From NCBI GenBank assembly GCA_965541585.1, contig CBEUCH010000009.1, forward strand, positions 76,962 to 140,961: a stretch of DNA of 64,000 nt, read 5' to 3'. The position numbers and the translations under genes are program-made. Below, piece after piece: positions 18,966-57,030 of this stretch (positions are counted from its first letter, which is position 1; each line of letters begins with the position of its first letter). Under the pieces are notes generated by a model, which saw only the letters and a program-made list of their open reading frames with translations, made no database searches and was not told where the DNA came from. This stretch comes from an uncultured bacterium (GTDB lineage: Bacteria; Zixibacteria; MSB-5A5; UBA10806).

Positions 18966-21659
18966 ATGAATCAGAGAGAGTTTGAAGGCAACACCCGTTC
19001 ATTCGTTCCCATATCCAACGGGACCATAATCTTCCACTACAAGGTCATTAAGAAGATCGGCGCCGGTGGCATGGGCGAAGTGTATCTGGCCGAAGACACC
19101 AGGCTTGATCGTAAGGTCGCACTCAAATTTTTACCGCTCCATCTATGTCCGGATGAAGATTACCACATACGATTCAAAAGGGAAGCCCAAGCCGTTGCTA
19201 AATTAAATCACCCTAATATAATTACAGTCTATGAGGTTTCAGAATATCAAGGACGCCCATTCTTCGCGATGGAGTTGGTCGAGGGTCAATCATTACGAGA
19301 ATTATCCTCAAGTAAAGGATTAAGCTGCGAGAGAATTATTGAACTTGCCATTCAGATATGCGATGGTCTAAGCGCCGCTCATGAGAAAGAAATAGTTCAT
19401 CGAGATATTAAACCGTCCAACATCGTTATCGACGCTTATGGCCGTCCTAAAATTCTTGATTTTGGTTTGGCGGCAATTCGGGGCCGTGAACAAATTACCA
19501 AGACCGGATCTACTCTGGGTACAATAAGATACATGTCACCAGAGCAGGTAGAGGGAAGAAAAGTTGACAGTAGGTCAGACCTGTTTTCACTCGGTACCGT
19601 TCTTTATGAAATGATCGCTGGCCGCACCCCATTTGAGCGCGACAATGAGGCCGCCACCCTAAAGTCCATTGGTCAAGACAATCCTGAGCCGCTGGGAAGG
19701 TACAAGTCCGATATACCTGATGAACTTCAACGCACAGTTTCCAAGTTGCTTGAAAAAGATCCGTCAATGAGATATCAGAGCGCCGCAGGTGTTATTAGTG
19801 ATTTGAAACCACTTATTGCATCGACCAGGAGCTCCATGACTTTACCCTCGACCAAACAGAAGAACAGATGGCCTCTTGCGGTCGGTGGGCTGGTAATTAT
19901 CGTAGGTTTACTGGTAGCAGGTGTAAAATACTGGCCCGACGGTGATACTGGGCATCCCGGTGCGCCAACTCAAGGGCGGATAATGTTGGCAGTACTTCCA
20001 TTTGAAAACCTGGGAGCGCCGGAGGATGAATACTTCGCCGATGGAATCACTGATGAAATCACCTCAAGAGTCGCGGTTCTTAATGGTCTCGGCGTAATTG
20101 CGAGGACGAGTATCTTGCAATACAAGGGCACAAAAAAGCGAATTGCGGAAATTGGCTCTGAACTGAATGTTGACTACATTCTTGAGGGGACGATTCGCTG
20201 GGACAAGTCGGGCAATATCGACAGAGTCCGTATCACACCGCAATTGATCCGGGTGTCGGATGAAACGCATCTCTGGGTGGACAATATTCAAAAAGACCTC
20301 TCGCAGATTTTTGAAGTGCAAGAAGAAATTGCCACGAGTATCGCCGGAGCGCTAAACGTAGCCTTAATAACCGGAGAGCGAGAGACGCTTGTTTATCGAC
20401 CGACCGAAAACCTCGAAGCCTATGACTATTATCTTAGAGCGAGAAACTATGGCGACCATGACGATTTTCTCGCGGCGATTGAATTGCTCGATAAGGCCAC
20501 CGAGCTGGACTCGACTTTTGCATTGGCCTTCGCCTTGAAATCTCAATCACATTCAAATTATGCCTTTGGAGAGGAATTGGGCGCTTCAGAGCATTCCGGG
20601 CCGGCGCGACTCGCTTATCAAAGGGCTTTTGAAATTCAACCTGACTTGGCTGAGGCACATCTGGCCCGCGGGACTTATTTGAATTTAATTGAAAGAGATT
20701 ACTCGAGCGCTCTCGAAGAATTTGAACTTGCTCAGCAAGGACAAGTTGACGAAGCGCAGGTTCTAAATGCAATCTCAATAGTCAAGATGCGACAGGGCAA
20801 ATGGCATGAGGCAATAGCTATCGCCAGGCAGGTCAACAAGCTTGACCCTCGATCATTTCGGGCTGGGTTAGTGGCGATCCAGGCAAACTTGTTCGTTCAT
20901 CAGTACGACGAGGCACTGGAAGCCGTTGAGCGAGCAATCTCTTTAGCTCCTGACGAAGTTGGAATCTATTCCATAAAAGCACAGATTCAGATTAACATGG
21001 GAGCGGATGTCGAGCAGATTCAAGAGACCCTTTCCGAATGGTCACGCCGTACCACTTTAGAGGGATGGGCATTCGAGTCAGAAGGACCGATGTTTTTCGG
21101 ACTCTTTCGCTTATGGAATCAGTCGATTGACGTGGATGCAAAGATCTCTGTTATGAAGTCAAGATTACATGACTATCAGAATCCAGATCAGTATTTCTAC
21201 ACGGGGCTTCTGTATCAACTTAAGGGGGACGAAGTTTCTTCGTACGTCTATCTGGATTCGGCGTGTATCCTGATCAAAAATCGTGTCGCGAAGGCCCGGG
21301 GCGACACTACCGGTCGATTTGAAAATTTCGATCTGGATCACAGCATTTATAATTTTCTTGCGCTGGCTTATTCACAGACAAATAGACATAAGCTCGCTAT
21401 TGATCACGCACAGTTGGCCATGGAAACCATGACTACCGATGACTGCCACTGGTGAGGACCTGGTTCGGTCATGGTCATGGCCTATGTTCAGTTGAATGCC
21501 GGGAATATTGATGTGGCGCTTGATTATCTGGAAGAGGTCTTGTCTATTCCGTCTTCCTATTCGACGGCCTGGGTTGAGCTGGACCCTCTATGGGCGCCGG
21601 CACGCAATCACGTTCGCTACGAAGAAATAATCTTGAAGTACAAGGGTATTTCCTTCTGA
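18966..21659 (+). CDS. Ser/Thr protein kinase-TM-TolB-like-TPR protein with in-frame TGA (candidate selenocysteine, 897 aa if read through)
   Basis: Intact kinase motifs (GAGGMG, VALK, HRDIKPSN, DFG, MSPEQ), a TM helix, LAVLPFEN domain and TPRs. TGA at 21453-21455 is followed in frame by GPGSV and ORF 21471-21659, which encodes the family-type terminus (LEEVLSIPS..LDPLWAPARNHVRY). Confidence 0.85.
21456..21482 (+). promoter_or_regulatory. Putative bacterial SECIS element
   Basis: 11-nt spacer after TGA, then GGTCAT-GGTC-ATGGCC (6-bp stem including one G-U, loop starting with G). Confidence 0.65.
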
Positions 21660-21727: not shown

Positions 21728-21856
21728 GCCCAGCCTGCTCCGGCGCTCCGGGAAATAGATCCCCTAACTTAAAGCGGACATATTCGCTATTAATAGGAAC
21801 AATTCGCACTTGAGTTGCAGTTAAGTTAATCAGAATTGACAACGGGGAGTGCAACA

Positions 21857-22906
21857 ATGAGAAAGCAGCTTTTGATCCTAAATCTAATCGCCTTGTTTGC
21901 AAGCGGTTGTGGCGATGATTCAACCGCGCCGGGGCAGGGTGTAATTGTAGATGATGAGATTTACTCCGGCGGGGTGCCGCGCGACGGGATACCAGCCTTG
22001 AACGATCCGGTATTCATAGAGGCAAATCAGGCCATATATTTATCCAGTGCGGATCTTGTCCTGGGCGTAGTCATCGAGGGTGAAGCCAGGGCTTACCCTA
22101 TCAACATCATGAATTATCATGAGATCGTCAACGATCACTTTCAGAGTCGCCCGGTCTGTGTCACCTATTGTCCCTTGACCGGTTCAGGGGTGGTATTCGC
22201 AAGTGTCCTGGACGGGCGGGAGGTTTCTTATGGAGTCTCCGGGCTTCTATTCAGGAATAATCTGATCCCATACGACAGAACCTCGTCCAGCCTCTATTCG
22301 CAGATGTATGTCAGCGGTATCAGAGGAGACTACCGCGATTTCGATTGGCTATTGTATCCCTCTCTGCGATGCACATGGGGATTCTGGAAGAATCATTACC
22401 CGGATACGAAGGTAATGTCTCCGAATACCGGCCATTCCCGGGACTACACCTCGAGTCCTTATGGCAATTATTCTGTGACTTACTCGACACTTTTCCCGGT
22501 CAGGTTTCCGGATAGCAGATACCATCCCAAGCATCTGACTCTGGGAGTGCAATTCGGTGGTCAGGCCATGGCGTTCCCATCGACCGAGCTTTTCAATGAG
22601 AAAGTGGTGAATATCGAACTTGCCGGTATGCCCCTGGTGATTGTCTATGACTCCAACGGCCGGTATATGGGCGTTTATTCACGTCTGGTGAGCGGCGACA
22701 TTCTGAGTTTCTCGTTGATCAGAAACAATAGTTCTAAGACGACAATGACCGACGATCAAACTGGCTCTACCTGGTCGGCTACGGGGCTGGCGACTGACGG
22801 CTCATTAGCGGGGGAGAAGCTGGAACAACTCCCGTTCTATACAGCCTACTGGTTCGCCTGGCACGATTTCTACCCGGAGACCGGGGTTTACACCGCCGAA
22901 GAATGA
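21857..22906 (+). CDS. DUF3179 family lipoprotein
   Basis: Lipobox ASGC. Motifs GG-x-PRDGIPAL, ARAYP, HEIVND, TYCPLTGS, GVSGLL, YDR and YWFAWHDFYP. Confidence 0.88.
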   Translation: MRKQLLILNLIALFASGCGDDSTAPGQGVIVDDEIYSGGVPRDGIPALNDPVFIEANQAIYLSSADLVLGVVIEGEARAYPINIMNYHEIVNDHFQSRPVCVTYCPLTGSGVVFASVLDGREVSYGVSGLLFRNNLIPYDRTSSSLYSQMYVSGIRGDYRDFDWLLYPSLRCTWGFWKNHYPDTKVMSPNTGHSRDYTSSPYGNYSVTYSTLFPVRFPDSRYHPKHLTLGVQFGGQAMAFPSTELFNEKVVNIELAGMPLVIVYDSNGRYMGVYSRLVSGDILSFSLIRNNSSKTTMTDDQTGSTWSATGLATDGSLAGEKLEQLPFYTAYWFAWHDFYPETGVYTAEE

Positions 22907-23764: not shown

Positions 23765-24334
23765 TCAGATAAAAAAGCTCAAGCCGCCAGCTATCTCCAA
23801 TGACGATTTTAGGCTAAGCTCATCCCCGAAGAAGCTACGATATGCAATCTGCATCCTCACCGCTGCATGCTTGCGGAAAAAGTGACGAATACCTCCCTGA
23901 AATCCCACATATCCCTCTGTATCTGTATCACCATTGGAGAGAGAGAGAACTCCCAAAAGGACGCTTGCGAAAGGGGACGTCCTGGCATCCGATTCTCCGA
24001 AAGCAGCCCCTATTCCACCCTCAGTGTTAAAGACTCTGAAATCACCGCCATCGCTTACGTTAAACAAAGAAAAACCGAAGTCGAACACGATCAGCGATTT
24101 CGTCCAAACCGACATCCGCAGCATGGACGTCATCGGGAAAGCGCTTGAACCACCCGGGATCGTTAAATAAGACTCGGTGTTATCTCCTCCAAAATAACCT
24201 TCGAAGGTTAATACGTTGAGACCCCCGAGCAAGGCAAACTCTACGCTGCCGCCATCAGGTCTCTGGGCAAGCGTATTTGATGTAAAAGTCAGAATCGTTA
24301 GAATAGTAAGAGCTAAAGTAATCGTAAATCTCAT
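23765..24334 (-). CDS. Outer-membrane beta-barrel protein (8-strand type)
   Basis: Signal peptide, alternating amphipathic strands and aromatic C-terminus (GGLSFFI). GAGGAG RBS. Confidence 0.75.
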   Translation of the reverse strand: MRFTITLALTILTILTFTSNTLAQRPDGGSVEFALLGGLNVLTFEGYFGGDNTESYLTIPGGSSAFPMTSMLRMSVWTKSLIVFDFGFSLFNVSDGGDFRVFNTEGGIGAAFGESDARTSPFASVLLGVLSLSNGDTDTEGYVGFQGGIRHFFRKHAAVRMQIAYRSFFGDELSLKSSLEIAGGLSFFI

Positions 24335-56930: not shown

Positions 56931-57012
56931 GCGGAAGTGGTGGAATCGGTAGACACGCCATCTTGAGGGGGTGGTGCCGAAAGGTGTGGGGGTTCAAATC
57001 CCCCCTTCCGCA
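56931..57012 (+). tRNA. tRNA-Leu(GAG), CCA not encoded
   Basis: GCGGAAG/CTTCCGC acceptor stem, anticodon arm CCATC-TTGAGGG-GGTGG, long variable arm and GTTCAAATC T-loop. Followed by CTA. Confidence 0.96.
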
Positions 57013-57030
57013 CTAAATATGCTAAGAATG

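Follow-up and report, generated by a model that had tools for sequence, protein, structure and literature searches.

A candidate selenocysteine-containing receptor Ser/Thr kinase of Zixibacteria with a CxxU motif in its TPR region

The window analysed here is a stretch of 64,000 nucleotides from contig CBEUCH010000009.1 of an uncultured Zixibacteria bacterium (assembly GCA_965541585.1), and its subject is the gene at 18966..21659 on the plus strand, an 897-codon frame with one in-frame TGA (codon 830) and a terminal TGA. We consider it very probable (about 0.88) that this gene encodes one 897-residue selenoprotein, in which SelB would insert selenocysteine (Sec, U) at a UGA flagged by a downstream hairpin, giving a CxxU motif in the tetratricopeptide repeat (TPR) region of a receptor. 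Judging from sequence and a structural model, the product would be a membrane receptor that combines a Hanks-type Ser/Thr kinase, one transmembrane helix and a sensor built of a CadC-like domain and TPRs.

Results

One frame interrupted by a single TGA

The sole interruption of the frame from 18966 to 21659 is the TGA at 21453-21455, and the list of open reading frames (ORFs) cuts the gene there into two pieces that share the same frame, 18966-21455 (829 aa) and 21471-21659 (62 aa, starting with ATG). Just upstream of the TGA stand TGC (21444-21446), the codon of Cys827, then CAC (21447-21449) and TGG (21450-21452); just downstream follow GGA CCT GGT TCG GTC ATG, and the peptide context reads D-D-C-H-W-*-G-P-G-S-V-M. 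The original prediction, made from the letters alone, had joined the two ORFs into one frame broken only by a TGA three codons after a Cys and had put the read-through product at 897 residues; sequence and translation agree on both counts, the frame running on through codon 830 to a terminal TGA at 21657-21659. Public sequencing runs are silent on assembly and expression: none of them contains above 0.08 of the sampled words, and the matches include no RNA run.

The TGA and its upstream Cys are conserved

The same prediction had proposed looking in related genomes for a TGA or a Cys conserved at this column, for purifying selection past the TGA, and for selA, selB, selC and selD in the genome itself; the conserved TGA with its upstream Cys, the selection and the four genes were found, as set out here and below. 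With the 147-residue C-terminal region as query, we searched 285 genomes of the phylum in six frames and evaluated 150 listed matches, 47 of which contain exactly one TGA. We examined 45 of these 47 (leaving out those of genomes G069 and G073), and 44 carry the TGA at the kinase column; together with a paralogue on contig C25 of the window's own genome they make 45 distinct loci, hereafter the Sec type, in 36 of the 285 genomes and 8 of the 20 taxonomic families scored. One match flagged with a single TGA (L090, genome G163) has no CxxU motif and was rejected as Sec-type.

At the TGA column the motif is C-[HFT]-[WLP]-U, mostly seen as C-H-W-U-G-P; a few loci have F in place of H, L in place of W or S in place of G. 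TGA is used here in all 45 loci, whereas the genes themselves terminate in TGA (22), TAG (13) or TAA (9); because an ordinary stop is expected to drift among the three stop codons, the conserved TGA is unlike one. Cys827, three codons 5' of it, is invariant and encoded by TGC in 37 and TGT in 8 of the 45 loci. An alignment of 43 Sec-type tails, about 30% identical to one another, has just four invariant columns: this Cys, the Sec and two Met. An exact-pattern scan matched 37 stretches of species genomes and 56 of metagenome contigs, amounting to 86 distinct contexts, and the upstream Cys, which lay outside the search pattern, is present in all 84 contexts with visible 5' sequence. One and the same TGA and motif in 45 distinct loci is far more than chance would give, and from these comparisons the UGA at 21453-21455 is very probably a selenocysteine codon.

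A single in-frame stop is also what a nonsense mutation, pseudogene decay or an assembly error confined to this genome would leave, but the same codon and motif recur in 45 loci of 36 genomes and in 86 genome and metagenome contexts, and the tail beyond the stop is intact and under purifying selection. Since 45 independent loci share the codon, an assembly error is excluded, and we give explanations of this kind practically no weight.

Public annotation presents the family in shortened form. Coverage of the query region by the 12 closest database proteins is only 62-66%, and the eight of them that were fetched end in ...CHW (seven) or ...CYW (one); 8 of 8 fetched public proteins of the Sec-type subfamily thus stop at ...C[H/Y]W, without the last TPR and its cap. 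Judging from sequence, this is very probably a genuine selenoprotein family of receptor Ser/Thr kinases, widespread and systematically mis-annotated.

The tail past the TGA is coding

Beyond the TGA the window gene has a 67-codon tail (21456..21656), which supplies the last TPR and its cap. In 44 of the 45 loci no stop interrupts the frame for 63-74 codons past the TGA (for L015, the contig ends after 64), and paralogues that lack the TGA end 59-72 codons past the same column. Locus L042 has a TAG 35 codons past the Sec codon, perhaps because the copy is decaying or was wrongly sequenced. L042 and L015 are tandem Sec-type genes on contig C41 of genome G036, and L104 shows an apparent frameshift 3' of the hairpin described below. 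In 14 hand-chosen close pairs, the ratio of non-synonymous to synonymous substitution rates (dN/dS) is 0.024-0.277 for codons +11 to +60, similar to the 0.026-0.354 of the 60 codons upstream, indicating purifying selection past the TGA. Tail residues 844-889 (21495..21632) match the curated NCBIfam model TPR_END_plus (NF047558), a TPR end-of-group domain, at 40.7 bits with a cut-off of 32.

The two codons right after the TGA encode Gly-Pro in 43 of the 45 loci and lie 5' of any AUG. They open an 11-nt spacer (21456..21466) in which Gly-Pro is kept as amino acids and the codons vary synonymously, the third position of the Pro codon (+2) being free (CCG 23, CCT 13, CCA 6, CCC 2). That Gly-Pro is kept with synonymous variation is evidence that the UGA is translated through, and speaks against re-initiation from an AUG farther 3'. 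Re-initiation is what a split gene would call for: with a real stop, the kinase would end at CHW after 829 residues, the tail of about 62 residues would be made as a peptide of its own from a conserved AUG, with the GAGGA that overlaps the stop serving as ribosome-binding site, and the two pieces might reassemble. A 62-aa ORF starting with ATG does appear at 21471-21659 in the ORF list, GAGGA and two AUGs are conserved at and past the TGA, and gene callers give exactly this truncation. A split gene would not, however, account for amino-acid conservation 5' of the first AUG, with GP or AP common at these columns in TGA-less paralogues as well, nor for an invariably used TGA in genes whose ordinary stops are mixed, an invariant Cys three codons 5', or wobble positions beside the AUGs that covary as a base pair. 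As the Sec machinery is also present, we regard a split gene as very unlikely.

A hairpin 11 nt past the UGA

The codon assigned to Sec is followed, after the 11-nt spacer, by a putative Sec insertion sequence (SECIS), the hairpin GGUCAU-GGUC-AUGGCC (21467..21482, plus strand), which has 6 bp and a 4-nt loop, encodes V-M-V-M-A, and was delineated from the alignment, RNAalifold and the genomic contexts. Pairing and covariation were assessed on 44 aligned sequences (264 cells) and 500 shuffles. Pairing holds in 99.2% of the cells; pair 1-16 is GC in 38 sequences, AU in 3, UA in 2 and GU in 1, and pair 3-14 is UG in 39, CG in 3 and UA in 2. The covariation score was reached by 0 of 500 shuffles, pairing falls to 2-64% in slid registers, and RNAalifold predicts the same hairpin independently. 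Across the 86 contexts, which were selected by pattern, pair 1-16 is GC in 73, AU in 6, UA in 4 and GU in 3, and is never unpaired. Because both positions of this pair are codon wobble positions, its covariation is not due to the protein. The five hairpin codons show zero differences in 14 of 14 close pairs, despite a synonymous divergence (dS) of 0.2-2.7 elsewhere, and the first two loop bases are invariantly GG.

The consensus bacterial SECIS (bSECIS), as given in the accessible text of PMC13188914, has a loop of 3-9 nt, an upper stem of 4-16 bp, at least one G in loop positions 1-2, a UGA-to-loop distance of 16-37 nt and a minimum free energy of -7.5 kcal/mol or lower. The kinase hairpin agrees with four of these five features (loop of 4 nt, stem of 6 bp, GG, and 17 nt from UGA to loop). 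V-M-V-M-A is specific to the Sec type, with varied residues in paralogues, and judging from the alignment the hairpin would force this peptide. A hairpin held at a fixed 11-nt spacing over forced V-M-V-M-A codons would be a natural case of an RNA signal constraining a protein.

In the window's genome (G000), a relaxed version of this motif turns up three times, in two Sec-type kinases and once without a UGA nearby. The second Sec-type kinase is the paralogue on contig C25 (minus strand, hairpin near 24103; locus L045:946-2649), whose kinase is intact and whose motif reads S-E-C-T-P-U-H-S-V-E-G-T-A-M-V-M-A, with 70 codons from UGA to stop; its hairpin, GGCCAUGGUCAUGGCC, lies 17 nt past the UGA as compared with 11 in the window gene. 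The third occurrence, on contig C1 near 219150 (plus strand), reads AGCCATGGTCATGGCA and encodes ...W-I-A-M-V-M-A-H..., with no UGA in the 20 preceding in-frame codons, and is probably a chance match.

The genome encodes the selenocysteine machinery

Clustered on contig C11 of the same assembly are selC, selD, selA and selB. The tRNA-Sec (66866-66957) scores 75.6 bits against a gathering score of 47 and is called by ARAGORN as tRNA-SeC with anticodon tca; selD (72796-73734, 349 bits) has one in-frame TGA, selA (74067-75131) scores 374.5 bits, and the winged-helix domain specific to selB lies at about 76892-77032 (58.4 bits). The selD gene has its own Sec codon at C11:72826 (...A-A-C-A-G-U-A-S-K...), and of the two hairpins that follow on its 3' side the second carries GGUC apically. 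Of the 285 genomes of the phylum, 271 have SelA, and Sec use is the rule in this lineage. Among the 36 genomes with a Sec-type kinase, 34 have SelA, the exceptions being G128 (86% complete) and G129 (78% complete); because SelA is so general in the phylum, co-occurrence of the kinase TGA with the Sec machinery is a weak test.

Read-through could also occur independently of Sec, by a near-cognate or suppressor tRNA (for example Trp or Cys) or because TGA is a sense codon in this organism, and a frame that continues under selection is what any read-through would explain. However, this gene terminates at a TGA, as do 22 of 44 Sec-type relatives, and the complete DUF3179 gene adjoining it ends in TGA too, so that TGA is not a general sense codon here. 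A hairpin with bSECIS spacing and a GG loop stands 3' of the codon, in a genome equipped for Sec insertion, and a Cys or Trp codon would have been simpler, yet is found at this column in 0 of 45 loci. We therefore consider read-through of this kind highly improbable.

Several points nevertheless weigh against the interpretation as a selenoprotein, beginning with the fact that we infer selenium insertion itself. The bare 16-nt hairpin reaches -5.2 kcal/mol, weaker than the -7.5 cut-off; the 68-nt and 121-nt stretches 3' of the UGA are no stabler than shuffles (z +1.40 and +0.34), and the 68 nt of the window reach -14.6 only by means of an outer helix that is not conserved. Covariation is seen in 2 of the 6 pairs only and comes from related sequences, and how far the hairpin is conserved is partly confounded by the peptide V-M-V-M-A, which is conserved too. 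Re-initiation is conceivable in principle, given two conserved AUGs and a GAGGA that overlaps the UGA. Any sensing role for the motif would be argued from its position and by analogy. Finally, there is the matter of Cys-containing forms, which nearly all selenoproteins have as homologues according to the part of PMC13188914 at hand. We searched 1.84 billion representatives with a profile of the Sec-type tail and obtained 40,439 hits at E <= 0.001; among the best 150 of these, 0 of 183 domain instances have Cys at both columns, so that no Cys-form was found there, and all 150 run across the Sec column unbroken. The CHWC form, for which the original prediction had suggested looking, was thus not found among the best 150 of the 40,439 hits, all of them full-length relatives at this column.

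Paralogues without the TGA and distribution of the Sec type

The TGA-less paralogues of the same phylum resemble the Sec type in length and in their architecture of kinase, transmembrane, alpha/beta and TPR parts, at 30-40% identity. Across the motif, 32 such paralogues read P-V-S-K-D-A-x-x-G-P, with no Cys at either column: Asp stands at the Cys column, Ala at the His column, and the residue at the Sec column is variable. At the position of V-M-V-M-A in the Sec type they have L-A-x-I-Y. A quick maximum-likelihood tree, which took in the motif columns, separated 22 Sec-type rows from 27 TGA-less rows by one branch with a Shimodaira-Hasegawa-like approximate likelihood ratio test (SH-aLRT) value of 99.9, and is consistent with a single origin of the Sec type.

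Genome G151 (contigs C26 and C27) holds at least four Sec-type paralogues, and the Sec type has therefore expanded by duplication. Over the last 147 residues, the window kinase is closest, among the matches listed, to L047 (G236, family f14; 73%) and L048 (G151, family f9; 64%), both from taxonomic families other than that of the window genome, and the TGA is absent from the listed matches of the other 12 genomes of the window's own family. This patchy distribution suggests transfer or differential loss, as far as the sequences allow us to judge.

Predicted receptor architecture

The N-terminal part of the protein is a Hanks-type protein kinase domain (residues 25-271; 19038..19778), matched by PF00069 at 179.9 bits against a cut-off of 31.7. 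Its translation contains GAGGMGEV, VALK, HRDIKPSN, DFG and SPE, which we take to be the kinase catalytic motifs; the earlier statement that these motifs are intact holds, as all are visible in the translation and PF00069 exceeds its cut-off. Identity as a PknB/Stk1 PASTA kinase was rejected, since the equivalog model NF033483 scores 317.9 bits, below its cut-off of 450, and its match is confined to the kinase part (residues 25-292). A kinase domain is also present in 7 of 7 diverse full-length Sec-type members (881-892 residues, with U at 813-823).

A single hydrophobic transmembrane segment can be read from the translation at about W302-W323 (19869..19934), with KQKNR just before it. Kinases require ATP, and under the positive-inside rule positively charged residues flank a membrane segment on its cytoplasmic side; on these two grounds, the N-terminal kinase is predicted to be cytoplasmic and the remainder of the protein to face outward, beyond the membrane. 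C-terminal to the membrane segment, residues 339-462 (19980..20351) form a predicted extracytoplasmic alpha/beta domain that resembles the periplasmic domain of CadC and has no Pfam match at E<=0.01. It is followed by an all-helical TPR superhelix that spans the TGA (residues 469-892; 20370..21641), seen in the model, by Foldseek and in Pfam TPR families, whose matches fall within residues 549-821 (TPR_2 at 43.3 bits against a cut-off of 27).

An AlphaFold2 model of residues 333-897, built from a 49-row alignment, is confident (predicted local distance difference test, pLDDT, 90.0; predicted template modelling score, pTM, 0.90) and consists of the alpha/beta domain, at model residues 7-130, and then the helical repeat array. 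Cys827 and Sec830 correspond to model residues 495 and 498 and would lie in a loop (490-498) that links helices 476-489 and 499-512, in a block with pLDDT 95, placing Sec830 directly before the first helix of the last TPR. TPR structures head the Foldseek list, and the CadC periplasmic sensor domain (3ly8) appears at rank 47, aligned to the alpha/beta-plus-helical half with TMt 0.67, TMq 0.40, 12% identity and a root-mean-square deviation of 4.6 Å over 305 columns. In the model, this resemblance amounts to a likeness of fold, and the output here would be a kinase.

Of the description 'kinase/TolB-like/TPR' given in the original prediction, the kinase and TPR parts stand on Pfam and the model, and the TolB-like part does not, having no Pfam match, with CadC as the nearest solved fold found. 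The placing of the kinase on one side of a membrane helix and of CxxU on the other fits the domain matches, the hydrophobic segment and the model alike. The strongest Sec-type-specific difference away from the CxxU motif is residue 573 (codon 20682-20684), which is Asn in 86% of 22 Sec-type proteins and Tyr in 24 of 27 TGA-less paralogues.

Proposed mechanism

On the reading of the UGA as a Sec codon, the hairpin 11 nt past it would recruit SelB with Sec-tRNA(Sec), and the ribosome would insert selenocysteine and continue to the true stop at 21657-21659. Cys827 and Sec830 could then form a reversible selenylsulfide or serve as a soft metal or metalloid ligand, and a change at this pair might reshape the TPR array at its end and thereby alter kinase output. 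The pair is placed at the N-terminus of a helix, as are redox-active CxxC and CxxU motifs. By analogy, we hold such a redox or soft-metal switch to be plausible at somewhat short of even odds. When selenium is lacking, the product would be without the last TPR and cap, and a regulatory role for this short form is speculation.

More tentatively still, and with more doubt than confidence, the findings could be drawn together as a selenium-based signalling receptor, in which a selenol or selenylsulfide at the TPR tip would sense redox state, a soft metal or a metalloid, and the selenium supply would gate the full-length receptor. Such a class would have arisen once, without a Cys counterpart, and spread by duplication, to as many as four verified copies in one genome, with the hairpin dictating V-M-V-M-A.

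Neighbouring genes

The genes around the kinase are housekeeping genes only and offer no functional clue. The DUF3179 gene directly downstream (21836-22906, plus strand) ends in a TGA followed by an in-frame Cys (...E-E-*-C-E-T-P-G-G...). As its Pfam profile is complete (1-292 of 292), this TGA is probably a real stop, and we rejected it as a Sec codon. The only tRNA in the window is a tRNA-Leu (anticodon gag) at 56931-57013 on the plus strand.

Discussion

The great majority of known bacterial selenoproteins are redox enzymes or handle metals. If our reading is true, a Hanks-type receptor kinase with Sec in its outward-facing sensor would bring selenium chemistry to the input side of a phosphorylation pathway, and would allow Sec to be tested in a role outside catalysis.

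The Sec-type kinase family is not listed in those parts of the selenoprotein inventories that we checked. Table 1 of PMC13188914 (2026), on prokaryotic selenoprotein families, has in the portion available no kinase except PSTK and no TPR protein, and the identifiers PF00069, PF07714, PF13181, PF07719 and NF047558 do not occur in the available text of that paper. The main text of the BSepDB paper (111 families) names a kinase for PSTK only, and the accessible part of its supplement, covering mainly Table S1, has none, which is a weak negative. Our literature search returned no paper joining selenocysteine, Hanks-type and kinase, and no selenoprotein model of NCBIfam matches the kinase protein. 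Prediction pipelines built on Cys/Sec pairs, as described in the accessible text of PMC13188914, would miss the Sec-type kinase because no Cys-form was found, and the missing Cys-form may explain its absence from the part of Table 1 at hand.

The selenoprotein genes of the E. coli fdhF type, with a SECIS inside the ORF that is read by SelB, share with the kinase gene an in-frame UGA followed by a small hairpin. The fdhF hairpin itself lies 11 nt past the UGA and has a GGUC loop. The kinase gene differs from this prototype in its weak bare hairpin, in having no conserved lower stem and no Cys-form, and in encoding a signalling receptor instead of an oxidoreductase. The minimal SECIS of E. coli, according to the accessible text of PMC11431864, is a 17-nt upper stem-loop that binds SelB.

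In the motif itself, the sequence W-U-G-P recalls the W-C-G-P-C motif of thioredoxin, and the CxxU and UxxC selenoproteins with a thioredoxin fold are like the kinase in carrying Cys and Sec three residues apart at the N-terminus of a helix. In the kinase, by contrast, the model puts CxxU in a loop between repeats of the all-helical TPR array. A thioredoxin fold was rejected for this region, which consists of TPR helices in the model, with no thioredoxin family among the Pfam matches. One entry of Table 1 in the available part of PMC13188914 is an envelope receptor with CxxU that is not a classical redox enzyme; it is likened to the kinase by its table row alone, its fold and function being unrelated.

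The nearest precedent for a thiol switch in a sensor of this build is CadC of E. coli, a ToxR-like membrane sensor whose periplasmic domain superposes on the predicted extracytoplasmic half of the kinase. In CadC, as described in the accessible part of PMC3096576, a periplasmic disulfide between Cys208 and Cys272, formed at pH 7.6 and not at pH 5.8, sets activity. The receptor proposed here would differ from CadC in having a kinase as its output instead of a DNA-binding domain, in carrying CxxU in the distal TPRs, outside the CadC-aligned part, and in using Sec.

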